Below are positions 18,569 through 56,844 of a stretch of 64,000 nt of DNA, one piece after another. Source of the DNA: Christensenellaceae bacterium (lineage in GTDB: Bacteria; Bacillota; Clostridia; Christensenellales; CAG-138); contig JAFLSU010000001.1 in assembly GCA_022510765.1 (NCBI GenBank), forward strand, positions 70,551 through 134,550, written 5' to 3'. The translations under genes and the position numbers were made by a program. Position 1 is the first letter of the stretch. Every line of letters starts with the position of its first letter. The notes under the pieces are model-generated. The model searched no databases and was not told where the DNA came from. It saw only the letters and a list, made by a program, of their open reading frames with translations.

Positions 18569-18609
18569 AAACAGCACCGTAATTTTGATACCAAGATTGC
18601 GGTGCTTAT
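18565..18609. repeat. Direct repeat copy 1: tRNA-Ser 3' end plus its terminator
   Basis: GCCAAAACAGCACCGTAATTTTGATACCAAGATTGCGGTGCTTAT recurs at 19397-19440 with about 5 substitutions and 1 indel. Confidence 0.8.
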
Positions 18610-18613
18610 TTTT
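18573..18613 (+). terminator. Intrinsic terminator after tRNA-Ser
   Basis: The stem AGCACCGTAAT pairs with ATTGCGGTGCT (one mismatch) and is followed by TATTTTT. Confidence 0.65.
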
Positions 18614-18639
18614 AACCCCAATTTACGGGAGGCACAGAT

Positions 18640-19314
18640 ATGGGAAGTAAATATTACGAAGCCTATGATAATCGTTTCAGGCAGATCCATGAACAGAATT
18701 TACAATGGTTCAGTGAATCTCCGTCCCCCATCGTAGCGGAAACCATCCGCACCTTTTCCATTTCCCCTCAGAGCAAACTATTAGAGATTGGCTGCGGCGA
18801 GGGGCGCGACGCATATTCGCTCCTCCGGCAGGGATTTGATCTTTTAGCAACCGATGTGTCTGCGGAAGCAATCGCATTTTGCAGGCGGAAGTTCCCCGAT
18901 TTTGCAGCGCATTTTCAAGTCACGGACTGCATCGCCGGAACGCTCGGCAGGACATTTGATTTCCTCTATGCGGTGGCTGTTCTCCATATGCTCGTTTTGG
19001 ACGACGACCGAAATGCATTTTATCGCTTCATCCGTGTGCATTTGGCTCCCACTGGGATCGCCTTGATCTGCACGATGGGCGACGGTACCTTTGAAAGGCA
19101 GACCGACATACACACCGCGTTTGACCTGCACGAGCGAATCCATGAACCGTCCGGAAAAGCCGTGCAAATTGCTGAGACCTCCTGCCGGATCGTCAATTTC
19201 CAGACCTTTGAAGAAGAGCTGATGCGAAACGGTCTAAACATTGTCAAAGAAGGCGTGACCGCTGTCGAGCCGGACTTTCCGCAAATGATGTTCGCTGTAG
19301 TTAAGAGGCATTGA
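18640..19314 (+). CDS. Class I SAM-dependent methyltransferase
   Basis: 224 aa with motif I LLEIGCGEGRD and a post-I acidic residue (LLATDVS). The gene is bracketed by the duplicated tRNA 3' flank. Confidence 0.85.
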   Translation: MGSKYYEAYDNRFRQIHEQNLQWFSESPSPIVAETIRTFSISPQSKLLEIGCGEGRDAYSLLRQGFDLLATDVSAEAIAFCRRKFPDFAAHFQVTDCIAGTLGRTFDFLYAVAVLHMLVLDDDRNAFYRFIRVHLAPTGIALICTMGDGTFERQTDIHTAFDLHERIHEPSGKAVQIAETSCRIVNFQTFEEELMRNGLNIVKEGVTAVEPDFPQMMFAVVKRH

Positions 19315-19396: not shown

Positions 19397-19440
19397 GCCA
19401 AAACGGCACCGTAATTTTGATACAAAGTTACGGTGCTTAT
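19397..19440. repeat. Direct repeat copy 2 (degenerate tRNA-Ser 3' end plus terminator hairpin)
   Basis: The sequence is GCCAAAACGGCACCGTAATTTTGATACAAAGTTACGGTGCTTAT. The hairpin GCACCGTAA/TTACGGTGC is preserved by compensatory changes. Confidence 0.8.
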
Positions 19441-19503
19441 CATTTATAAAGAAAACAATATATCAGAGAGTGCGTCTCGGTGAAAGGAGTTCGCATCACC
19501 ATA

Positions 19504-19764
19504 ATGTTTAGAAACAAGGATATTATTTCCGCACACAAATTCTGTGCAAATAATATGGCTTCACTTCGGAAAGATAAGGTATGTGGTTGCTTTTACTGCA
19601 TGAAGATTTTTTCATCGGATAAAATTGAAAGCTATATCGAGGAAAATTGGGACACTGCAATATGCCCGTACTGCGGCATCGATTCTGTTATCGGTGAAAG
19701 CTCGGGGTACCCTATAACCAATGATTTTTTGCAGCAAATGAAAACATATTGGTTTGAAAGCTAA
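19504..19764 (+). CDS. Small Cys-rich (zinc-ribbon-like) hypothetical protein
   Basis: 86 aa from the ATG (MFRNKD). It contains VCGCFYC ...TAICPYCGIDSVIG, that is two CxxC-like knuckles. The start is uncertain (GTG at 19480 or ATG at 19504). Confidence 0.55.
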   Translation: MFRNKDIISAHKFCANNMASLRKDKVCGCFYCMKIFSSDKIESYIEENWDTAICPYCGIDSVIGESSGYPITNDFLQQMKTYWFES

Positions 19765-19950: not shown

Positions 19951-20043
19951 ATGTTTTCGGGCAGTGGACATGATAATACTCATCCGATTGTGCTTATAAA
20001 AGTCAAAGCTGCCAGATCGATATCGACCTGGCAGCTTCAATAG
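19951..20043 (+). CDS. Possible 30-aa micro-ORF
   Basis: AGGAGG lies 6 nt before the ATG. The product would be MFSGSGHDNTHPIVLIKVKAARSISTWQLQ. The 3' part overlaps a 10-bp-stem hairpin. There is no other support. Confidence 0.25.
   Translation: MFSGSGHDNTHPIVLIKVKAARSISTWQLQ
19994..20037 (-). terminator. Candidate terminator downstream of the AP2 gene pair
   Basis: The perfect 10-bp stem AAGCTGCCAG (20006-20015) pairs with CTGGCAGCTT (20028-20037). On the minus strand it is followed by TGACTTTTATA. Confidence 0.5.
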
Positions 20044-20156: not shown

Positions 20157-20915
20157 CTACACAGAAATCGCTTCATTCATATTCGTTATGACATTAAACT
20201 CTCCATTGACCTTCTCCACCTCATAGAGCAGAGGATTTTTCTCAGCCCATTCTGGGTCGGTTTCGGCCCGTTTCTGCCATTTGCGGTAAGCCGCAGTAAA
20301 GCCGAGATGCAGAACCGCCTCAGCATCCAGTCGGGCTTGCACAGCCTCGTCAAATGTTTTGTACGTGCCAAGATAATAATGCTTTCTCTTAAATCCAATC
20401 TGCGCGGCATAAGTATCATGTTTTGTTTTCACAACACCACGAAATCCGCTGACATTATTTTTACGGTTTTTCGGCACAGCTAATTGTTCCAGGCATGTGC
20501 CGCTAACGTAATGTAAGCGGGAGCGCATTTCCGGCAGAGTTTCTTTCATTTTTAAGCATCCGCAGCTCTCTGTGGAACCATTTTTCAAATTACCGGCGTC
20601 TACCGAATGTAAGTTTCCGCAGTCACATTGGCACAGCCACTGAACATAGCCATTTTTATCTTTCGCTCTTCTCAGGACTGTAAGTTTGCCGAACCGCTGA
20701 CCGGTCAAATCTTCAATGCGCCGATATTTCTTTCGTTTCTCAGAGTCGCAGCCACAATCCATAATTGCACCGGAAGTCAACTGCCTGGTCGTCGCAAGAA
20801 TCTCACCGGCACAGTCGCATCGGCAGAGCCAGAGTTGCCTGCGGTTTTTATCTTTCTTTGCTTCTGCAACCGTCAATTTACCAAATCGTTGTCCGATCAG
20901 ATTTCCGTCACTCAT
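20157..20915 (-). CDS. DNA-binding protein with 2 Cys-rich (Zn-ribbon-like) repeats and a C-terminal AP2 domain
   Basis: 252 aa from the ATG, 8 nt after AGGAGGG. It has two repeats of G-Q-R-F-G-K-L-T-V..W-x-C-x-C-D-C..L..G...C-G-C. The C-terminus, SGFRGVVKTKHDTYAAQIGFKRKHYYLGTYKTFDEAVQARLDAE, matches the AP2/ERF-type pattern (G.rGV......w.A.I......yLG.f.t.eeAa.A). Confidence 0.8.
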   Translation of the reverse strand: MSDGNLIGQRFGKLTVAEAKKDKNRRQLWLCRCDCAGEILATTRQLTSGAIMDCGCDSEKRKKYRRIEDLTGQRFGKLTVLRRAKDKNGYVQWLCQCDCGNLHSVDAGNLKNGSTESCGCLKMKETLPEMRSRLHYVSGTCLEQLAVPKNRKNNVSGFRGVVKTKHDTYAAQIGFKRKHYYLGTYKTFDEAVQARLDAEAVLHLGFTAAYRKWQKRAETDPEWAEKNPLLYEVEKVNGEFNVITNMNEAISV

Positions 20916-20978
20916 CTGCTCAACCCTCCTGATAGTTGCAACAAATCTTCGCACTAAACCTGTGTTCTCAATATCTAT

Positions 20979-22163
20979 CTACTCTTTCTTATTGCCCTCG
21001 GCAACGTCGCCTACATTCGAGTATCCGTTGTAATACCAGTCAAGAAACCGCTCGTACATTTCTTCTCCGCGCTTCCTTGCTTTTACAGCGTCCTGAATGT
21101 CGGAGTATGAACCCAGATAGTAAGTCTTTCCTTTGAAGGTAATCTGAGCCGTCCACATTCCGTTGCCGTTCAGATAGACTCCGTTATGCCCGCTGGTATT
21201 GGATTTGATGGTTGATTCCATCCGCCTTTCAATCAAGCGGACGGATGTTCCGCCTACAAACTGCATATTTTTTTGATAGACTTCCCGCTGTAGACAGCCG
21301 CAGCTCTTTGTATGTCCATAGAGCAGATTTCCGTGTCGAACAGTTGTCTGGTTGCCGCACTCACACTGACATCGCCAATAGCCAATATCATCTTTCCATT
21401 CCGCAAACCCAATAACAGTAAGCCGGCCAAAGATTCTGCCGGTCAAATCAACGAGTTCACGGGGTTTGGAGCGCAAATCACTTTGTGAGACATCTGAGTT
21501 CGTTCCATCGGGTTTGTAATCTTGAATCCCAGCGGAGCTGATAAGCGCTAGACGTCTCTTCTGTTCGCCTGACAACTGCTTTCTGGCGAGATAACGCTTA
21601 CAACCGCAGTTTGTGATCTGACCGGACTGAAGACGAGTTTGCCCCACATCGATTTCCACACCGCACTCACATTTGCAATGCCAGTAGTGCAGACCAGACC
21701 TTTTTCCGGCATACTCCATTACCACAAGGGAGCCAAACTGCTTTCCCACATAATCCTTCAATGGGGGATGACTCAAACAGCCGCAGCTTTTTTTATAGCC
21801 TTGGGTGAGCTGCGTACTGATCGCCAAGCACTCATTTCCACAATCACACCGACATCGCCAGACGGTACCGCCACTTGAACCACGCTCGTTGGTTGGCTCA
21901 AGACAGATCAGTTTTCCGAACCGCTGTCCAGTCAGATCTTTCTGCCCGGACTTGACCTTGATGCCGCTACAGCCGCAGTCCCTGACCGTGGCGCGTTGCA
22001 GTTGTCGTGTATCCAGCAATATCTCGCCGCCGCAGTCACAGCAACATTTCCAGACAGAATAACGATGCCGATATAGCGGAGTCCGTTCCTGCACAGTTAG
22101 TTTCCCAATGCGGTATCCGATCTCGATTTTGGGTCGTTGTATAGTCAGATCTGTTTTATTCAT
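20979..22163 (-). CDS. DNA-binding protein with 4 Cys-rich (Zn-ribbon-like) repeats and a C-terminal AP2 domain
   Basis: 394 aa from the ATG (MNKTDL), preceded by AGAGGG. It has four copies of the same roughly 50-aa repeat (for example LTGQRFGKLICLEP..VWRCRCDCGNE..LTQGYKKSCGC). The AP2 segment is SGHNGVYLNGNGMWTAQITFKGKTYYLGSYSDIQDAVKARKRGEE. It is a paralog of the downstream gene, including the RBS region. Confidence 0.8.
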   Translation of the reverse strand: MNKTDLTIQRPKIEIGYRIGKLTVQERTPLYRHRYSVWKCCCDCGGEILLDTRQLQRATVRDCGCSGIKVKSGQKDLTGQRFGKLICLEPTNERGSSGGTVWRCRCDCGNECLAISTQLTQGYKKSCGCLSHPPLKDYVGKQFGSLVVMEYAGKRSGLHYWHCKCECGVEIDVGQTRLQSGQITNCGCKRYLARKQLSGEQKRRLALISSAGIQDYKPDGTNSDVSQSDLRSKPRELVDLTGRIFGRLTVIGFAEWKDDIGYWRCQCECGNQTTVRHGNLLYGHTKSCGCLQREVYQKNMQFVGGTSVRLIERRMESTIKSNTSGHNGVYLNGNGMWTAQITFKGKTYYLGSYSDIQDAVKARKRGEEMYERFLDWYYNGYSNVGDVAEGNKKE

Positions 22164-22494: not shown

Positions 22495-25400
22495 TCAGCT
22501 ATTGGAAATGCGTTTTTTGCGGGAAATACTTCCGAGATTAAGCACGGCACCGGTTAACAGAAGCCCGCCCAAAAGATAGAATGGCAACGTGCCGATTCCA
22601 CCGGCAGCAGGGAGATCATATAAACTGGGTTTATCGCTCAATACCATGCTTTCCAAATTGTTTACATTTAACCATTTAATGTCAGGATATTGTTGCTCAA
22701 ATTCTTCAATCTCCTCATCACTAAAATAGAAATAATACTTGTTAGGATCAAGATAATAACCAGCCGGCGCAGTTAACTCTTGCAGATAATAAACCACATT
22801 CGGGGCCAAAATTATACCTTGATTAAAATTCGTACGGAACTCAAATATTCCCTCATCATTCGTCGTTCCTGTTGTAATTTCGTGACCGTCAGCACTATAT
22901 AAACCATACCTCGCACCAGGAAGCCTGGTCCACTCACTCGATCCGAGTCCCACACCTCTTTCATCAATTTTTTCGATTGTAAGATGTATTCTGTACCATA
23001 CAGAACCACTATCAATGTCCATCTCACCGTTAGTTTCAGATGAAACACCAAAATTAGAAAAGCGTAAGATTGCTATATTACCGTAATAAATTCGCCCAGT
23101 TTCTTCTTCATCGAATTCAATCATTACATCATATTTAATGGTATACTCATGAGCACCCGGTTGCTGCAAATAAATAGTTAGTACCCTTGTATCGTTATCC
23201 CATTCGTAGGTATAATCTTTTTCATAGGCCAGTCGCGTATTATCCTCATCAATAACCAACGACCCCAGAACAAAAAACATATTTTTCATTTCATCCACGA
23301 TTTTAAGCTTTGCTTCCTCGCCTTCGCCTACATACTCGCCCAAATTAACTTTGCCACCCTCATTAATAACGATGGTATAACTACCAAAGCAGCTTTCGTT
23401 ACCAGAAGGCGAGCTCGTCTCAGTCTTTTTAATTAGTTTAGGAATAGGTAGTTTTATCTCAGATCTAGCTGCCGTAGCAGTACCATTACGTAAACGTGCC
23501 TCATTAATATATTCATCTTCTGTACTATCCAAAATTTTAACTTCATCGTATGTACCCAGTCCATATGTATCTGTTGCATACGTTATTATCAAATCAGCAT
23601 CTTCCATTAAACTCCAATGTGTACACCAATCCTCTCCACCTTCGAGATTAAACTGATCCTTTAAACTATATCTACAATTCTCTTCTTTACGGTTTACTAA
23701 ATAAAGCCAACCTACCGAATTGCAATAATAAGCAATCGTATCATCTTCATTAGCATCACTTACCTCCGGTAACACAAAACTTTCCCCATCATATCGAATT
23801 GCAACACTAGCACCATTCAAACGCCAAGTATAAGTCGATTCATCACCCAATTTCTCTTGGTCAACTATATTCCACTGACCATAATTTAGCCCATTATACT
23901 TAGGAATCGACGCTGTAATCATAAAATGATACTTGCCATCGTTCAGGTCAAGCTTCCCTGTTTTCTTTATTTCTGGCTTCGTCAAGCTTTCTCCACCTTC
24001 AGATGGAATCTCAAAGTCAAAATTTAACCAAAATTCTACACCCATAGCATCACTTGAATTTTCTTCAAACGTAATAGCAAGCAGACCATCTTTCTCAACT
24101 ACATAAGTGCCAATAACATCATTGCCAAGCTTAACCTCGCCAGCAACCTTTCCTTTAATTTCAAAAACTTCTTTCGGAAGCTGGCAGGTATAGACGCCCG
24201 ATTGAAATCCGTTATGATCAGTCGAATAAATATACATTGAGAACTTGTACTTCCCGCCAGGATACATGTTATAATGCCCCTCGTCATCTGGGTATATTTC
24301 TACATTGTTTTGTTCGTCTATTTTCCAGATGATTTTGTAGTTAAACTTTCCTCCTATGGAACGAATATATTCTTCCAAATTTCTTCCCTCAACAACATCT
24401 GCCAACACAAACGGTGAAAAGTGGTCTGCTGTAAAAGTTACTTTCGTTACAACTCCATTCTCACCAGTCGCGATTTCTGCTTCCAGATTTTCTGGTGTCT
24501 CTTCATCCTGCAAGTGGAACAACTTCCAGTCACCCGTATTAATAAATTTTTCAACCGGTGTTTGGAACTCCAAGGACACTGTTACATTACCATTTAACTG
24601 CACCTCATCTCCATCTACATTCACGAAGGAAATATCATAAGGATAGATTGCCGCTAACGCGAGCATCATTCCTGGCTGCTCCGGTTGTTGCAAGGCATTT
24701 TGTAAGGCCTGTTTTATCTTATCCAGCTGTTCTTGATGTTCTTGACCCTCGATCTGACTCACTCGCAACGACGCACCCTCGGGCACCGCATTACCATTGT
24801 CATATACAGATACTGTCACATTACCAATATTAACGGTTAAGTCAGTGTCCTCATTAGTAATTGCGGGTACTTCTGAATTCTCATCGGAAGGTTTCGGCTG
24901 CTCCTCAGTAGGTTCATCCAACTCTACCTCACGGAAACAGCCGTCTCCGTGGACATGCTCATAAAGCACTGTTTTCTCGCAGATCAACTGACCATCCAAA
25001 TCGTAACAATTCTCCGGACTATGGGTATGCATCTCCAGCTCACCACAAATCAACATCCCTGTTTCATCGTAGCAGCTTTCCTGATGCTCGTGGGGTGCAA
25101 TTTCAGGCAGTTGGCAGAGCAGACTTCCTTCCTCGTCCCAACAACCTTCGGTATGTACGTGAACCACATAATCTGCTTCTCCGCAGATTAGCTGTTCCTC
25201 TTCGTCGTAACATTCAGTTCCATGCTCATGAACAATGAGAGGGCAGTCCAGCAGCAGATTGCTGCCTACCTCTGCATCGCCGCTTGAATCGATAAGGTTG
25301 TCATCATCATTCGGATCTTCCTCCGCCGCTATCTCCCGGAAACAGCCGTCCCCATGGATATGCTCATAAAGCACTGTTTTTTCACAGATCAACTGACCGT

Positions 25401-26157
25401 CCAGATCGTAGCAATTCTCCGGACTATGGGTATGCATCTCCAGCTTATCGCAAATCAATATCCCCATTTCATCGTAACAGCTCTCTTGATGCTCATGGGG
25501 TGCGATTTCAGGCAGTTGGCAGAGCAGGTTTCCGGTCTCATCCAAACAACCTTCGGTATGTATGTGAACCACATAATCTGCTTCTCCGCAGATCAGATTC
25601 TTCTCTTCGTCGTAACATTCCGGCCCATGCTCATGAACGCTGAGAGGACAGTCCAGCAACAGATTACTGCCTGCCTCTTCCTCTGCCTCATGGAAACATT
25701 CGTCTCCGTGGACGTGCTCAAAAAGTGCTATTTTTCCGCAGGTCAACTGACCGTCCGCGTCGTAACAATTCTCCGAACTATGCGTATGCAGCTCCAGCTC
25801 ACCACAAATCAACATCCCCGTTTCATCGTAACAGCTTTCCTGATGCTCATGGGGCGCGATTTCAGGCAGTTGGCAGACCAGGTTCCCCGCCTCGTCCCAA
25901 CAACCTTCGGCATGCGCGTGAATCACATAATCCGCTTCCCCACATATAAGCTGCTCCTCTTCGTCGTAGCATTCCGGCCCATGCTCATGAACGATGAGAG
26001 GGCAGTCCAGCAACAGGCTATTGCTTGCCGCCGAGAACCTTGGCAAAGTTATTATATAGACCAATGCCAGCATCATCGCCACCACGCGTATCCAAACGGA
26101 GCGCCCCTTGCGCTTTTTGGAGGACGCATTTTGCGCCTGATTTTCAAATTTCATCAT
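22495..26157 (-). CDS. Sortase-anchored cell-surface protein (adhesin-like) with an N-terminal Cys/His-rich tandem repeats and a C-terminal Cna-B/SpaA-type domain
   Basis: The start is at MMKFEN (GAAGGA RBS), giving 1,220 aa. A signal/TM segment (WIRVVAMMLALVYIITL) is followed by three repeats of about 120-135 aa. A Cna-B-like domain is present (LPGARYGLYSADGHEITTGTTNDEGIFEF...YYLQELTAPAGYYLD). The C-terminus has LPAAG, then the hydrophobic stretch GIGTLPFYLLGGLLLTGAVL, then a basic tail RKKR, which reads as an LPXTG-like sorting signal. Confidence 0.85.
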   Translation of the reverse strand: MMKFENQAQNASSKKRKGRSVWIRVVAMMLALVYIITLPRFSAASNSLLLDCPLIVHEHGPECYDEEEQLICGEADYVIHAHAEGCWDEAGNLVCQLPEIAPHEHQESCYDETGMLICGELELHTHSSENCYDADGQLTCGKIALFEHVHGDECFHEAEEEAGSNLLLDCPLSVHEHGPECYDEEKNLICGEADYVVHIHTEGCLDETGNLLCQLPEIAPHEHQESCYDEMGILICDKLEMHTHSPENCYDLDGQLICEKTVLYEHIHGDGCFREIAAEEDPNDDDNLIDSSGDAEVGSNLLLDCPLIVHEHGTECYDEEEQLICGEADYVVHVHTEGCWDEEGSLLCQLPEIAPHEHQESCYDETGMLICGELEMHTHSPENCYDLDGQLICEKTVLYEHVHGDGCFREVELDEPTEEQPKPSDENSEVPAITNEDTDLTVNIGNVTVSVYDNGNAVPEGASLRVSQIEGQEHQEQLDKIKQALQNALQQPEQPGMMLALAAIYPYDISFVNVDGDEVQLNGNVTVSLEFQTPVEKFINTGDWKLFHLQDEETPENLEAEIATGENGVVTKVTFTADHFSPFVLADVVEGRNLEEYIRSIGGKFNYKIIWKIDEQNNVEIYPDDEGHYNMYPGGKYKFSMYIYSTDHNGFQSGVYTCQLPKEVFEIKGKVAGEVKLGNDVIGTYVVEKDGLLAITFEENSSDAMGVEFWLNFDFEIPSEGGESLTKPEIKKTGKLDLNDGKYHFMITASIPKYNGLNYGQWNIVDQEKLGDESTYTWRLNGASVAIRYDGESFVLPEVSDANEDDTIAYYCNSVGWLYLVNRKEENCRYSLKDQFNLEGGEDWCTHWSLMEDADLIITYATDTYGLGTYDEVKILDSTEDEYINEARLRNGTATAARSEIKLPIPKLIKKTETSSPSGNESCFGSYTIVINEGGKVNLGEYVGEGEEAKLKIVDEMKNMFFVLGSLVIDEDNTRLAYEKDYTYEWDNDTRVLTIYLQQPGAHEYTIKYDVMIEFDEEETGRIYYGNIAILRFSNFGVSSETNGEMDIDSGSVWYRIHLTIEKIDERGVGLGSSEWTRLPGARYGLYSADGHEITTGTTNDEGIFEFRTNFNQGIILAPNVVYYLQELTAPAGYYLDPNKYYFYFSDEEIEEFEQQYPDIKWLNVNNLESMVLSDKPSLYDLPAAGGIGTLPFYLLGGLLLTGAVLNLGSISRKKRISNS
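24922..26025 (-). repeat. Three tandem coding repeats (about 357-405 nt units) in the adhesin gene
   Basis: Protein units begin near residues 69, 188 and 323 of the long ORF (SNLLLDCPL..). They are near-identical at the protein level. The mirror ORFs at 24949-25191 and 25354-26190 on the plus strand reflect the DNA repetition. Confidence 0.9.
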
Positions 26158-26304
26158 GACGGTGTTCCTTCTTTCTTTAAAACAATTTAACAAAGCCATA
26201 TCAACGTTCTTCATCCGTATATTTCTCAAAATATATGAGAAAATAATATCGGGTGAGGAAGCGGCGGCTTCGTCTGTCGTCTGCTTTGATGATTGAGGCA
26301 GAAT

Positions 26305-26326
26305 ATTTCGCAGAGTTCTTCACTCT
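26305..26326. repeat. Inverted repeat, left arm (ATTTCGCAGAGTTCTTCACTCT)
   Basis: It is the exact reverse complement of 27743-27764 (22 of 22). Confidence 0.95.
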
Positions 26327-26337
26327 GCACATTCAGC

Positions 26338-26366
26338 ATTATAGCATAAGTGCTTGGCTTTTGCAA
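26338..26366 (-). promoter_or_regulatory. Near-consensus outward-facing promoter inside the IR-bounded segment, directed at the adhesin gene
   Basis: On the minus strand, TTGCAA (26366-26361) is followed by the 17-nt spacer AAGCCAAGCACTTATGC and TATAAT (26343-26338). It lies 11 nt inside IR-L, and transcription would run through IR-L to the ATG at 26157. Confidence 0.55.
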
Positions 26367-26547
26367 GAGGGTTCACAAAAAAGCCACTTATATTTTTGGC
26401 TTTTCTTCATGATGAGATACGAATTATGAGATTTTTCCATTGAGAGACAGCGATTATCGGAGCAATCGCCGTCAAAGCCGCCGTCATACGAGAGTAAATT
26501 CGCACCGCTGAAATAATAGATAAAATCTTCAAAAGGAGGACATTATT

Positions 26548-27666
26548 ATGTCAAGGAAAGGCGAAAACATTTACAAGCGTAAAGACAACCGCTGGGAGGC
26601 ACGGTATATCAAGGGTTACACAGCGGAAGGAATCATTCGTTATGGCTATTGCTATGCAGCAACGTATCGAGAAGTAAAAGAAAAGGTGACGGCCGCAAAG
26701 GCTGCCTTGATGAATAATCTCACTCCGGAACCAGTGAGCATCAGACGTCGGTTCGGTCTTTACTGCGACGAATGGCTCCGATTGAATCGCAGTCGTGTCA
26801 AGGAATCCACTTATGTCAAGTATATAACGAACATAGAAAATCATATTAAACCAAAGCTCGGCGGGTGCTTTGTGCAGGGGCTTTCTTCACTGATTGTTGA
26901 GGAATTCAGCCATGATTTGCTTTATGAAAAGGAATTATCCCCAAAAACAGTTCGGGACATTTTGATGCTTCTTCATGCTATTCTCAAATATACGCAGAAA
27001 CAGGTGCCGAATATGCCTTTGGTAGAAGTGGTCTATCCAAAGGACATAAAAAAGGAAATGAGGGTATTAAGCCGAGACGAACAAACGCGCTTGGTTCAAT
27101 ATCTGCTTTTAGATATGGACGAATGTAAATTTGGCGTATTGCTTGCGCTGCTGACCGGACTGCGGATAGGTGAAGTATGCGCACTGCGCTGGCGGGATGT
27201 CTCTTTGACAGACAAGCTGATGTGCGTTTCTTCTACTATGCAGCGACTTAAAAATCTCGATGAGAATGCACAGCAAAAAACAAAAATTATCATCAGCAAT
27301 CCAAAAAGCAACACATCTGCCCGACAGATCCCATTGACCGATTATACCGTGAAGCTCTGTAAAGTCTGGGAGGTTCGTGATCCCTCTGCGTTTGTTCTTA
27401 CGGGAGAGACTGACCGCTATATTGAGCCTCGCACATTGCAGTATCGCTTAGAGCGCTATACCAAGGATTGCGATCTTTCCGGTGTCCATTTTCATGTGAT
27501 GCGACACACTTTCGCTACCCGATGTGTTGAGGTTGGTTTTGAAATTAAGTCCCTTTCCGAAATCTTAGGTCACACAAGTCCGAAGTTCACGCTAGAGCGG
27601 TACGTTCATTCTTCTTTGGAGTTGAAGCGTGACAACATGAGCAAGCTGGGGGCTATCGGTTACTGA
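26548..27666 (+). CDS. Tyrosine-type site-specific recombinase/integrase with an N-terminal AP2-like arm-binding domain
   Basis: 372 aa with an AAGGAGG RBS. The N-terminus is ENIYKRKDNRWEARYIKGY...YGYCYAATYREV (Tn916-Int-like arm-binding pattern). The catalytic set is TGLRIGEVCALRW (R), HVMRHTFAT (H-x-x-R) and LGHTSPKFTLERYVH (H...Y). Confidence 0.9.
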   Translation: MSRKGENIYKRKDNRWEARYIKGYTAEGIIRYGYCYAATYREVKEKVTAAKAALMNNLTPEPVSIRRRFGLYCDEWLRLNRSRVKESTYVKYITNIENHIKPKLGGCFVQGLSSLIVEEFSHDLLYEKELSPKTVRDILMLLHAILKYTQKQVPNMPLVEVVYPKDIKKEMRVLSRDEQTRLVQYLLLDMDECKFGVLLALLTGLRIGEVCALRWRDVSLTDKLMCVSSTMQRLKNLDENAQQKTKIIISNPKSNTSARQIPLTDYTVKLCKVWEVRDPSAFVLTGETDRYIEPRTLQYRLERYTKDCDLSGVHFHVMRHTFATRCVEVGFEIKSLSEILGHTSPKFTLERYVHSSLELKRDNMSKLGAIGY

Positions 27667-27742
27667 TTTATCGCCGTCAGATTGCTCCGTCAAAAACATC
27701 GAAAAACTCCTGATTTCAGCAATATTTTCCTTTGCAAATAAT

Positions 27743-27764
27743 AGAGTGAAGAACTCTGCGAAAT
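27743..27764. repeat. Inverted repeat, right arm (AGAGTGAAGAACTCTGCGAAAT)
   Basis: It is the exact reverse complement of 26305-26326. Confidence 0.95.
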
Positions 27765-56734: not shown

Positions 56735-56780
56735 GCAAAATCAGGCGGCATTAAGCACCCGATTTCGGGTGCATGCCGCC
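56735..56780 (-). terminator. Compound terminator downstream of the phosphoglucomutase gene
   Basis: The inner perfect hairpin GCACCCG-ATTT-CGGGTGC (56755-56772) is nested in GGCGGCAT/ATGCCGCC (56744-56751 and 56773-56780). On the minus strand it is followed by CTGATTTTG. Confidence 0.6.
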
Positions 56781-56844
56781 CGCATTTGGTATCGCCTCTT
56801 TATGCGCCCGATTTCGGGTGCTGCAACCAATTCCGTATGCGTGC

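Follow-up and report, generated by a model that had tools for sequence, protein, structure and literature searches.

The question raised by this locus is what two adjacent genes, A and B, do, whose products join tandem cysteine-rich units to a C-terminal AP2-like domain, and what ties them to the genes around them. The window analysed here is a continuous stretch of 64,000 nucleotides from the genome of a Christensenellaceae bacterium. Both genes were defined as open reading frames with their translations, and the units by a regular-expression scan combined with an alignment of units; all lie on the minus strand:

20979..22163, minus strand: gene A, 394 aa from an ATG start; four CapR units, then a disordered linker, with the AP2 domain at the C-terminus
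21969..22118, minus strand: CapR unit A1, aa 16-65
21777..21929, minus strand: CapR unit A2, aa 79-129
21600..21746, minus strand: CapR unit A3, aa 140-188
21294..21440, minus strand: CapR unit A4 (AP2-proximal), aa 242-290
20157..20915, minus strand: gene B, 252 aa from an ATG start; two CapR units followed by an AP2 domain and, at the C-terminus, an extension specific to its clade
20748..20894, minus strand: CapR unit B1, aa 8-56
20556..20702, minus strand: CapR unit B2, aa 72-120

Gene A has an alternative TTG start 9 nt upstream of the ATG, which would give a protein of 397 aa. Protein A matches P0001 (annotated as hypothetical in a Christensenellaceae MAG) at 100%, protein B matches P0121 at 100%, and the AlphaFold models have mean pLDDT values of 77.5 and 83.9, respectively. 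The signature W-x-C-x-C-x-C ... C-x-C is present in six of six units, and the scan returns exactly the count of four and two units of about 50 aa that an earlier note on this DNA had given (the unit it used as an example corresponds to B residues 70-120). A search of the window outside A and B for further W-CxCxC...CxC units found none. When the six units are aligned with three from phage proteins, the Trp and the five cysteines that the note had called conserved are invariant across all nine, and the core is free of gaps; units A1 and A2 carry additional cysteines beyond the shared five. Compared unit against unit, A and B give BLASTP E values from 4e-07 to 5e-35. The nearest unit to A1 is B1 (48% identity), and A4 is 57% identical to B2 and 50% identical to the unit of a Listeria CasPRIB1-like protein. 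AlphaFold predicts three beta-strands and a short helix for each unit, with pLDDT mostly above 90; a Foldseek search of the PDB gave no meaningful match for the finger units, and matched the AP2 part alone. In orthologs that are 73-85% identical to A and B, every unit and every cysteine is kept. Three or four units are usual in the clade to which A and B belong, and related arrays have up to 11.

The C-terminal part of the two proteins comprises the following features:

21021..21197, minus strand: AP2-like domain of A, about aa 323-381 (modelled by AlphaFold with three strands and a long helix; PDB profile search; PHROG matches to the AP2 region)
20259..20459, minus strand: AP2-like domain of B, about aa 153-219 (Pfam AP2, PDB profile, Foldseek)
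20178..20258, minus strand: C-terminal extension of the B-type, with a helix, a beta-hairpin and the motif DPxW..NP..V..G.F.V (alignment A1 and AlphaFold)

Scores against Pfam AP2 (PF00847, gathering score 33.3 bits) are below threshold, at 13-18 bits in A and B and 20-27 bits in homologs; the isolated domain of B is matched at E=0.003, under the gathering cut-off. A profile search of the PDB retrieves AP2/ERF structures exclusively (WRI1 at E=0.005, TEM1 at E=0.02; WRI1 at E=0.013 for the domain of B). With the AlphaFold model, Foldseek places the AP2 domain of TEM1 first, with a probability of 1.00, an rmsd of 1.1 Å over 38 columns and 32% identity. Judged by the modelled fold, a three-stranded sheet packed on a helix, the C-terminal domain of both proteins is AP2-like, as had been proposed. 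The extension that follows it in B has near-invariant residues P221, W223 and P228 (in alignment A1, a label unrelated to the unit of that name) and AlphaFold strands at 231-236 and 239-244; its motif is found in 26 of the 120 proteins in the list of B homologs and in 0 of the 120 in the list of A homologs.

Assigning the unit to a family is less direct. A profile search with single repeats, a check that the earlier note had suggested, gave nothing: against the CapR homology domain of Pfam (PF21817, gathering score 24.2 bits) none of the six isolated units was matched even at E <= 10, and searches of whole A and B against Pfam and NCBIfam gave no CapR at any threshold, AP2 below threshold and no nuclease family. 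The identification therefore depends on the literature, on direct alignment to phage proteins of the CasPR type and on comparison of folds. (HHpred was likewise required by Sanderson et al. to detect the CapR domain, bioRxiv 10.64898/2026.02.23.707548.) A protein of a Streptococcus dysgalactiae phage, with two CapR units and an AP2 domain, clears the PF21817 gathering score at 25.9 bits and aligns with B over the full length (37% identity, E=3e-34); the CapR homology of the B units is thus transitive, since the protein that clears the profile is aligned with B from end to end. Listeria phage LP-LmcIH1-9 gp0024 (166 aa) served as a proxy for CasPRIB1 (QDA75636.1), with which it shares the Cys and Arg numbering (C33/35/37/56/58, R138/R149). 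Residues 237-370 of A align with this entire protein (its residues 5-156) at 39% identity and E=6e-27, and B aligns with it at E=2e-24 over residues 5-153. CasPRs have been retrieved by BLASTP to CasPRIB1 with E <= 1e-4 and query coverage of at least 70% (10.64898/2026.02.23.707548); against the proxy, both A and B give E values well below 1e-4 and coverage above 70%. From these alignments the unit of about 50 aa is identified as a CapR zinc-finger DNA-binding domain. The modelled fold, together with the requirement for the same cysteines in CapR (PMC8096241) and CasPRIB1 (10.64898/2026.02.23.707548), agrees with the view of the earlier note that the unit is a small cysteine-based, zinc-finger-like DNA-binding module.

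For both proteins, the best-scoring library families bear the label HNH endonuclease; phrog_374 is matched by A at E=9e-71 and by B at E=9e-46. These PHROG matches span the finger and AP2 regions exclusively, and the labels arise because these modules are common to phage homing endonucleases. No HNH, GIY-YIG or T5orf172 catalytic domain is found in A or B by Pfam, NCBIfam, PHROG coverage or the AlphaFold models, in which all ordered residues are assigned to fingers, linkers, AP2 and the small C-terminal hairpin of B. The label was rejected for this lack of a nuclease domain, and A and B are classed, by sequence, as nuclease-free DNA-binding proteins of the CapR plus AP2 ("CasPR-like") type.

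This type is not new, and the statement of the earlier note that such proteins are uncharacterised in bacteria does not hold. The CapR finger was named in 2021 (it is now PF21817), when Cys-to-Ser mutants were found to lack DNA binding (Netter et al. 2021, PMC8096241), and homing endonucleases with repeated CapR modules were described in 2023 (Barth et al., PMC10448857). The CapR plus AP2 architecture is that of the CasPRs, phage anti-CRISPR repressors that act as roadblocks, characterised in a 2026 preprint under the names CasPRIB1, CasPRIB2 and CasPRIIA1 (Sanderson et al., bioRxiv 10.64898/2026.02.23.707548). CasPRIB1 has a 30-bp binding site and stalls RNA polymerase; its Cys mutants and AP2-Arg mutants are inactive, and protein from zinc-supplemented cultures binds heparin better (10.64898/2026.02.23.707548). 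What the earlier note observed is thus largely explained.

The likeness to the CasPRs extends to the N-terminal CapR finger(s), an identical CxCxC-18/19-CxC spacing, helical linkers, the AP2 domain, the lack of a nuclease, the origin in Bacillota, 37-39% identity in full-length alignments, and the equivalent of CasPRIB1 R149, which the alignment places in both A and B. However, the characterised CasPRs have one or two fingers, where A has four and B two, and they lie in a prophage acr locus, whereas A and B lie in an adhesin operon behind a putative invertible promoter. In addition, members of the A/B clade are chromosomal, in Oscillospiraceae, Lachnospiraceae and Christensenellaceae, and R138 is not kept in A and B. 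The CapR of the Vibrio cholerae PLE (PMC8096241) is likewise a nuclease-free zinc-finger DNA binder derived from the DNA-binding modules of homing endonucleases; it represses transcription by direct DNA binding, and its cysteines are essential. Unlike A and B, it has one finger of the form CxxC...CxC and no AP2 domain, is borne by a phage satellite, and targets the capsid promoter of the helper phage. Phage homing endonucleases with CapR/DUF723/DUF4397 fingers (T5orf172 type) share the modular CapR arrays of variable repeat number, and in the HNH-AP2 ("IPA-HNH") enzymes AP2 is the DNA-targeting module (PMC10448857); A and B differ in having no HNH, GIY-YIG or T5orf172 catalytic domain.

The earlier note had also read the pair as a local duplication with a change in repeat number, pointing to paralogous ribosome-binding regions. 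Both of the strings it quoted are present, but the 10-mer they share, GAGGGTTGAG, is absent upstream of both orthologs in L004, the closest related locus. The proteins are 33-47% identical, and their DNA similarity amounts to one 44-nt patch at 82%. The pair is kept together in this second genome, A-type and B-type proteins fall into different sub-clades, and the C-terminal extension is confined to the B-type. On these comparisons, A and B are old paralogs rather than recent duplicates.

A surface adhesin gene and an invertible segment with a recombinase gene and a promoter-like site, neither of which the earlier note mentions, lie upstream of the pair. The features of this region are:

20003..20040, minus strand: strong terminator-like hairpin of the intrinsic type, 17-bp stem and T-run, 3' of gene B (consensus match)
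22495..26229, minus strand: surface adhesin gene, 1244 aa from a TTG or 1220 aa from an ATG at 26157, upstream of A and B and co-directional with them
26305..26326, no strand: left arm of a perfect 22-nt inverted repeat, ATTTCGCAGAGTTCTTCACTCT (inverted-repeat search)
26338..26366, minus strand: near-consensus promoter-like site TTGCAA-17-(TG)TATAAT, just inside the segment (consensus match)
26548..27666, plus strand: tyrosine recombinase gene, 372 aa, inside the segment (Pfam Phage_integrase, E=4e-25)
27743..27764, no strand: right arm of the 22-nt inverted repeat (inverted-repeat search)

The gene order on the minus strand is adhesin, A, B. The adhesin combines a SpaA fold domain with an LPAAGG sorting signal, and it contains three repeats rich in Cys/His. 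A gap of 331 bp separates its gene from A, in which no terminator-like site was found on the minus strand, and the hairpin beyond B is probably the end of the operon. The left repeat arm lies 76 bp upstream of the TTG start of the adhesin and 148 bp upstream of the ATG. The segment bounded by the repeats (26305-27764, 1.46 kb) holds the recombinase gene and a promoter-like site that, in the assembled orientation, reads out through the left repeat into adhesin, A and B. In shuffled controls, the longest exact inverted repeat averages 7.7 nt and reaches 12 nt at most. A search of metagenome contigs for the flipped junction gave 0 matches, as did an orientation-neutral control, the strain being absent there. 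The neighbours of the pair are the adhesin, the recombinase switch, a methyltransferase gene and a tRNA-Ser.

Promoter invertons that control surface structures include E. coli fimS with FimB/FimE, Salmonella hin, and the capsule promoters of Bacteroides fragilis, which are followed by UpxY/UpxZ regulators. The switch described here resembles them in having inverted repeats that flank a putative promoter, a recombinase gene beside or inside the segment, adhesin or pilus genes downstream, and a regulator, which is often the first gene past such a switch; a recombinase gene inside the invertible segment is a feature of hin as well. It differs in its size (about 1.4 kb, with an internal tyrosine recombinase) and in that CapR-AP2 proteins are the regulators predicted to be co-expressed; no description of such a pairing with a promoter inverton was found in the literature. 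PhaseFinder-style surveys reportedly cap inverton length well under 1 kb, and a switch of this size would be missed by them for that reason. General surveys of invertons have been published (PMC11892184).

Whether this arrangement is peculiar to the window was addressed by a survey of genomic contexts, which had also been suggested in the earlier note. The survey covers 80 loci, 33 of which have full flanks (at least 5 kb on each side). Among these 33, sortase-pilus/adhesin genes are present in 23 (70%) and a recombinase lies directly upstream in 15 (45%). Across all 80, the CapR-AP2 gene adjoins a switch in 28, and the recombinases are of two unrelated types. At nine loci (the window and eight others) exact inverted repeats of 16-24 nt with a common TCTGCGA core surround a homologous recombinase; that of the window is 58% identical to the recombinase of L047 and 46% identical to that of L045, a locus of Acetatifactor aquisgranensis DSM 110981. 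In both pairings of L037, with L087 and with L085, the DNA outside the repeats is colinear and the stretch between them is reversed, with breakpoints at the repeats, so that both orientations are seen across genomes at orthologous loci. A promoter-like site just inside the repeat is directed at the CapR-AP2 genes in three loci (the window, L037 and L061); in L087, where the segment is flipped, it faces away from the CapR-AP2 gene. The hexamers of L037 and L087 are the same as those of the window and occupy an equivalent position. At serine recombinase loci, an exact-match search for inverted repeats gave none, and a mismatch-tolerant search revealed a small inverton between the invertase and the CapR-AP2 gene in four of five. 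A BTAD "activator-domain" protein follows the CapR-AP2 gene in 25 related loci. Comparative genomics thus shows CapR-AP2 genes to be built into operons for adhesins or sortase pili, with an invertible DNA switch immediately ahead of them.

Taken together, these observations tilt us, by a modest degree, toward the reading that A and B are phase-variably expressed, sequence-specific transcription regulators in an adhesin operon. By analogy with CapR and the CasPRs, each finger would hold Zn2+ through its conserved cysteines, and the fingers and AP2 sheet would jointly read a long, asymmetric DNA site; the suggestion of the earlier note that the string of units plus AP2 reads an extended target is plausible on the same grounds. 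The bound proteins would then alter transcription, most likely by blocking RNA polymerase, either as a roadblock or by promoter occlusion. The segment promoter, in the assembled orientation, would drive adhesin, A and B up to the strong terminator, and since it points into these genes A and B are most likely made in the "ON" phase only, along with the adhesin. They may act in trans, coupling the state of the switch to other genes; candidate targets are other pilus/adhesin loci, their own locus and the switch. Given the 331-bp gap, A and B could have their own promoter, independent of the switch, and given the BTAD neighbours CapR-AP2 proteins could activate rather than repress. A broader proposal is that, in gut Clostridia, CapR-array/AP2 proteins serve as regulators at the output of phase-variable pilus/adhesin switches. 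Each invertible promoter would switch an adhesin locus on along with one or more programmable multi-finger repressors of its own, these would silence competing adhesin loci or other genes in trans by an RNA polymerase roadblock, and the phage CasPRs would be a co-opted offshoot. We regard this as speculative and on the whole unlikely; were it true, it would be a Gram-positive counterpart of the cross-locus control exerted by Bacteroides UpxY/UpxZ.

What appears to be undescribed is a very large chromosomal CapR-AP2 clade in gut Clostridia, mostly with three or four fingers and with up to 11 in relatives, and its place in sortase-pilus/adhesin operons directly behind putative invertible promoters of two unrelated kinds. 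If the phase-variable regulator reading is true, CasPR-like biology widens from phage counter-defence to host phase variation, the pili of abundant, genetically intractable gut commensals gain a candidate class of regulator, and the arrays offer a natural library of modular bacterial zinc fingers from which a DNA-recognition code might be derived.

A different reading takes A and B as true CasPRs, that is, repressors of a mobile element that counter CRISPR or other defences by binding inside cas or other host defence genes. The architecture and BLAST homology fit the operational definition of the preprint, which also includes CasPRs with multiple CapR domains and holds the evolution of other targets possible (10.64898/2026.02.23.707548), and an integrase gene, the tRNA-Ser, lower G+C and a small ORF of the phage family phrog_30788 are close by. 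However, A and B have no recognisable acr genes beside them and no genes for phage structure or lysis around them, and the 64-kb window has no CRISPR array and no cas gene among its ten largest ORFs. The "integrase" lies between inverted repeats and inverts in place at orthologous loci, the behaviour of an invertase rather than an element integrase. The clade is overwhelmingly chromosomal and pilus-associated (a single close relative lies on a "viral" contig, and that one is also in a pilus operon), and R138, a residue that CasPRIB1 cannot do without, is replaced by Ser in A, as in the Streptococcus protein, and by Thr in B. This reading is, on that evidence, improbable, and the tRNA-Ser, the lower G+C and the phage-family ORF leave room for a mobile-element origin.

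It is also conceivable, at a still lower level of probability, that the switch itself is the target of A and B, which would be accessory or directionality factors: bound close to the inverted repeats, they would bias inversion by the tyrosine recombinase, or lock it, and so feed back on phase. The position of the CapR-AP2 gene beside switches of two unrelated recombinase types would suit such a role, and AP2 proteins could compete with the recombinase for similar sites: the N-terminus of the recombinase, NIYKRKDNRWEARY, presumably resembles the AP2-like arm-binding domain of Tn916-type integrases. Against this, a Pfam search of the recombinase gives no arm-binding domain, no repeated motif was identified near the inverted repeats, and many CapR-AP2 genes come last in their pilus operon, with 8-10 kb between them and any possible switch.

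The idea that A and B are what decay has left of homing endonucleases of the HNH-AP2 or T5orf172-CapR type, with the nuclease lost and no current function, for which the phrog_374 matches speak, is scarcely credible given two intact ORFs, the conservation of units and cysteines in the 73-85% identical orthologs, thousands of nuclease-free homologs with the same architecture (and many invariant positions in alignments A1 and A2), conserved synteny with pilus operons and switches, and the activity of nuclease-free CapR and CasPR proteins in experiments.

For the surroundings of A and B, two further origins were considered and rejected. A conjugative element (ICE) was suggested by the sigma70_r4/HTH_16 and SNF2-methylase neighbours of L005, a setting that is not general across the 80 loci. 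A classical island, formed by tRNA-Ser and integrase, was dropped as the main explanation because inverted repeats lie on either side of the integrase gene and the DNA between them is found inverted in orthologs; an att-like search with the 3' end of the tRNA gave just an 18-nt repeat, which is part of a terminator hairpin that occurs in duplicate around the methyltransferase gene.

Genes A and B, two adjacent genes on the minus strand of the window, encode proteins in which CapR zinc fingers are combined with a C-terminal AP2 domain. Read in their direction, the region contains an HTH_3 gene and a 161-aa ORF (opposite strand), a tyrosine recombinase, an adhesin, A, B and a terminator, past which lie a convergent Cys-rich ORF, a methyltransferase gene and tRNA-Ser:

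18640-19314, SAM-methyltransferase gene
19480-19764, plus strand, 94-aa Cys-rich ORF
20003-20040, strong terminator-like hairpin after gene B
20157-20915, minus strand, gene B, intact ORF of 252 aa with two ~50-aa units
20979-22163, minus strand, gene A, intact ORF of 394 aa with four ~50-aa units
26229-22495, minus strand, SpaA-domain adhesin, LPAAGG-anchored, upstream of A
26305-26326 and 27743-27764, perfect 22-nt inverted repeat enclosing the entire recombinase gene
26548-27666, plus strand, tyrosine recombinase gene, divergent from the adhesin

A and B are co-directional and separated by 63 bp, and their products match at 100% two hypothetical proteins on a 232-kb contig of a Christensenellaceae MAG. 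The earlier note had counted four repeat units in A and two in B, and a pattern scan bears this out (consensus G-x-x-[FI]-G-x-L ... W-x-C-x-C-x-C-G ... C-G-C, ~50 aa); no further copies occur elsewhere in the 64-kb window. The similarity of the repeats far exceeds chance (BLASTP between units of A and B, E = 4e-07 to 5e-35), and all nine units of an alignment with a gap-free core keep the Trp and five Cys. AlphaFold2 models, built on input alignments of 40 sequences each, have a mean pLDDT of 83.9 for B and 77.5 for A and are confident in their ordered parts. Each unit is predicted to form three β-strands and a short helix, and the C-terminal domain three strands and a long helix; within A, the second and third fingers (A2, A3) are closely spaced, and a low-confidence linker of ~50 residues joins A3 to A4.

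Pfam/NCBIfam searches with the whole proteins return only AP2 on B at E=0.11, and no family there matches A or any isolated unit. In PHROGs, phrog_374, which carries the label 'HNH endonuclease', matches A (E=9e-71) and B (E=9e-46); the matches so labelled span the repeat and AP2 regions only, and A and B have no nuclease domain. The CapR finger takes its definition from the Vibrio PLE repressor CapR, whose Cys-to-Ser mutants no longer bind DNA (PMC8096241), and repeated CapR modules are known from phage homing endonucleases (PMC10448857). CasPRs, phage anti-CRISPR repressors defined by CapR and AP2 DNA-binding domains, bind within the cas8b or cas9 coding sequences and block RNA polymerase. 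The residues that all of them conserve and that are essential for function are C33/C35/C37, C56/C58 and, in AP2, R138 and R149 (10.64898/2026.02.23.707548). Listeria phage LP-LmcIH1-9 encodes, in its lysin-integrase (acr) locus, a 166-aa protein whose Cys (33/35/37/56/58) and Arg (138, 149) occupy the essential CasPR positions. Residues 237-370 of A (last finger, linker and AP2) align with this protein end to end (39% identity, E=6e-27), residues 67-199 of B align at 37% identity (E=2e-24), and the essential cysteines and R149 are conserved in A and B. Full-length B also matches a 200-aa protein with two CapR fingers and AP2 from S. dysgalactiae phage Javan117 (37% identity, E=3e-34), which itself exceeds the gathering threshold of Pfam PF21817, 'CapR homology domain'. 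For the C-terminal domain, the best PDB matches in Foldseek are to Arabidopsis TEM1 AP2 (probability 1.00, rmsd 1.1 Å, 32% identity), and a family profile run against PDB finds only the AP2 domains of WRI1 and TEM1; matches at E <= 1e-3 further include 114 structure predictions for viral proteins, many of them carrying AP2 or HNH names.

Taken together, the homology to CapR and the AP2 fold bear out the initial structural guess of Cys-rich units plus AP2, and the alignments identify A and B as homologs of experimentally validated DNA-binding repressors. The protein kind is already known and the first finding is mostly explained; the view that such proteins are uncharacterised in bacteria is outdated, since the architecture has been described in CasPRs (10.64898/2026.02.23.707548).

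The local duplication that had been proposed from the paralogous ribosome-binding sites is not supported as a recent event. A and B share 33-47% protein identity, and their DNA is similar over only one stretch of 44 nt; the pair is kept in another genome (locus L004; 73-76% protein identity, about 78% DNA), where the 10-mer common to the two ribosome-binding sites is not conserved. Finger similarity follows position (A1 is nearest B1, 48%; A4 is nearest B2, 57%), and a conserved C-terminal extension is present in B-type and absent from A-type proteins. By these comparisons A and B are old paralogs. Elsewhere, in L005 (7845-11068), three consecutive CapR-AP2 genes have 2, 3 and 4 fingers (259, 317 and 355 aa). 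This trio sits downstream of a CHAP/SpaA adhesin-sortase cluster and is followed by HTH_3, sigma70_r4/HTH_16, DUF5131 and SNF2/N6-methylase genes, a context resembling a conjugative element.

The family is large: a word-indexed search with A or B gives more than 7,000 hits per query among the matches listed, and an exhaustive search gives 71,184 representative clusters with a cut-off of E <= 1e-3 and 1,774 when this is tightened to E <= 1e-30. Among the matches listed, the closest 240 homologs have 2 (n=11), 3 (105), 4 (119), 5 (2), 6 (1) or 7 (2) fingers, so that within this clade four fingers are ordinary and two a minority. The longest array among the exhaustive-search representatives is 11 tandem CapR fingers in P0241 (895 aa), whose C-terminus fails to fit the AP2 pattern and looks helix-turn-helix-like; if it is, CapR arrays pair with differing terminal DNA-binding domains.

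The inverted repeat around the recombinase gene has counterparts elsewhere. Exact inverted repeats of 16-24 nt surround a tyrosine recombinase in nine loci, the window and eight others with a repeat-bounded segment of ~1.4 kb (L037, L047, L058, L061, L065, L074, L085, L087), and share a TCTGCGA/TCGCAGA core; in shuffled controls the best exact inverted repeat averages 7.7 nt and reaches at most 12 nt. Both orientations of the recombinase relative to the CapR-AP2 gene are found across loci. Between orthologous loci, L037 against L087 and L037 against L085, flanking sequence is colinear (72-78% identity) and the inner segment is inverted (65-70%, opposite strand), with breakpoints that coincide with the repeats. 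Just within the left arm in the window lies the region's best promoter-like site (TTGCAA-17-TG-TATAAT, 10/12 matches), which by consensus match faces outward, through that arm, into the adhesin gene. At the recombinase-5' end, a TTGCAA-17-TATAAT promoter match sits immediately inward of the repeat. In the window and L037 it is directed at the CapR-AP2 genes, and L061 has a similar site (TTGTCA-17-TAAAAT) with that direction; in L087, which is flipped, TTGCAA-17-TATAAT points away. The repeats, the two orientations, the inverted segments and the promoter-like site that turns with the segment support a switch.

Conserved linkage to surface-structure genes emerged from a survey of 80 related loci by ORF calling, seed-protein searches and seed-free clustering. 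These loci were drawn from a collection with one genome per species, and every one belongs to gut Clostridia (Oscillospiraceae, Lachnospiraceae, Acetatifactor and Dorea among them). Recurring neighbours are giant LPXTG/VWA/SpaA adhesins, SpaA and Cna_B pilins, sortases and signal peptidase. Immediately upstream of CapR-AP2 lies a tyrosine recombinase of ~373-400 aa in 24 of the 80 loci and a serine resolvase/invertase of ~200 aa in 11; directly downstream, a BTAD-domain protein is encoded in 25. Flanks of at least 5 kb on each side are available for 33 loci. Pilus/adhesin genes are present in 23 of these (70%) and a neighbouring recombinase in 15 (45%); counting adjacent BTAD genes too, 26 (79%) show one or more of these features. 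Two layouts dominate: adhesin - pilin - sortase - pilin - sortase - CapR-AP2, with gaps of 0-30 bp, and recombinase - CapR-AP2 - BTAD - 125-aa protein - giant adhesin - pilin - sortase. The ~125-aa protein, conserved and without a Pfam match, often follows the BTAD gene. In 4/5 serine-invertase loci, a small classical inverton (19-27-nt repeats, 88-158-bp spacer) lies between the invertase and CapR-AP2 genes:

L042, 9556-9762, small serine inverton
L054, 2021-2201, small serine inverton
L023, 2631-2756, small serine inverton
L078, 9812-10011, small serine inverton

CapR-AP2 genes are thus physically linked, in a conserved manner, to adhesin/pilus operons and invertible segments, and two unrelated switch types at one position are convergent evidence for their phase-variable expression. 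General inverton surveys tie Clostridia invertons to tyrosine recombinases, but one such survey (PMC11892184) makes no mention of pili, sortases or AP2 proteins; in the literature searched we found neither the link of this large chromosomal clade to phase-variable pilus/adhesin loci nor a 1.4-kb promoter inverton carrying a tyrosine recombinase.

These data suggest a model in which the invertible promoter would co-express the adhesin, A and B, the window having presumably been assembled in the 'ON' orientation. Each finger would hold zinc, and two to four fingers plus AP2 may together read a long DNA site; CasPRIB1, with one finger and AP2, requires 30 bp (10.64898/2026.02.23.707548). A and B would act in trans to control transcription, probably as repressive roadblocks of the CasPR kind. 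Several diverged CapR-AP2 paralogs occur per genome at different loci (57-90% identity), which fits locus-specific regulators and possibly cross-locus exclusion.

Alternatively, A and B might activate, jointly with a BTAD protein. This ~400-aa protein (e.g. L049 1028-2242, L087, L075), a candidate partner for the CapR-AP2 protein, has BTAD (bacterial transcriptional activator) as its sole Pfam match, and no DNA-binding domain was detected in it. A second alternative is that A and B control the switch itself. The recombinase N-terminus, NIYKRKDNRWEARYIKGY (26548-26620, plus strand), resembles the AP2-like arm-binding domain of Tn916-type integrases, a likeness that raises the possibility of DNA sites shared with, or competed for by, A and B; Pfam finds no arm-binding domain in this stretch at E <= 10. 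A third alternative is that A and B might be true anti-CRISPR or anti-defence factors, as their phage homologs might suggest. Elsewhere in the window, housekeeping functions account for all ten of the largest ORFs, none of which is a cas gene, and the 64-kb window has no CRISPR array. In IMG/VR only one contig has a close relative (63% identity; all others <=47%), and the genes on that contig form a pilus operon in the order LPETG adhesin - pilin - sortase - CapR-AP2.

Several further features were noted in the window. The adhesin N-terminal region (24850-26016, minus strand) has three Cys/His-rich repeats of ~120-135 aa (LLLDCPLxVHEHGxECYDEE...HGDxCF), beginning at nt 26016, 25662 and 25257, for which Pfam gives no match; its C-terminus has the LPAAGG sorting signal, yet the island has no sortase gene. 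The 94-aa ORF has no Pfam match and matches phrog_30788, a phage family with no assigned function, at E=4e-21. A terminator-like hairpin of ~50 bp occurs twice, at 18569-18625 directly after tRNA-Ser and at 19400-19450 after the SAM-methyltransferase gene, with the exact 18-mer GCACCGTAATTTTGATAC in both copies (at 18574 and 19406); this duplication around the methyltransferase gene resembles the trace left by a small insertion. Between the MatE and phosphoglucomutase genes (56751-56821), the 22-nt hairpin-forming sequence TTAAGCACCCGATTTCGGGTGC is present in two copies 49 nt apart, which are probably tandem terminators.
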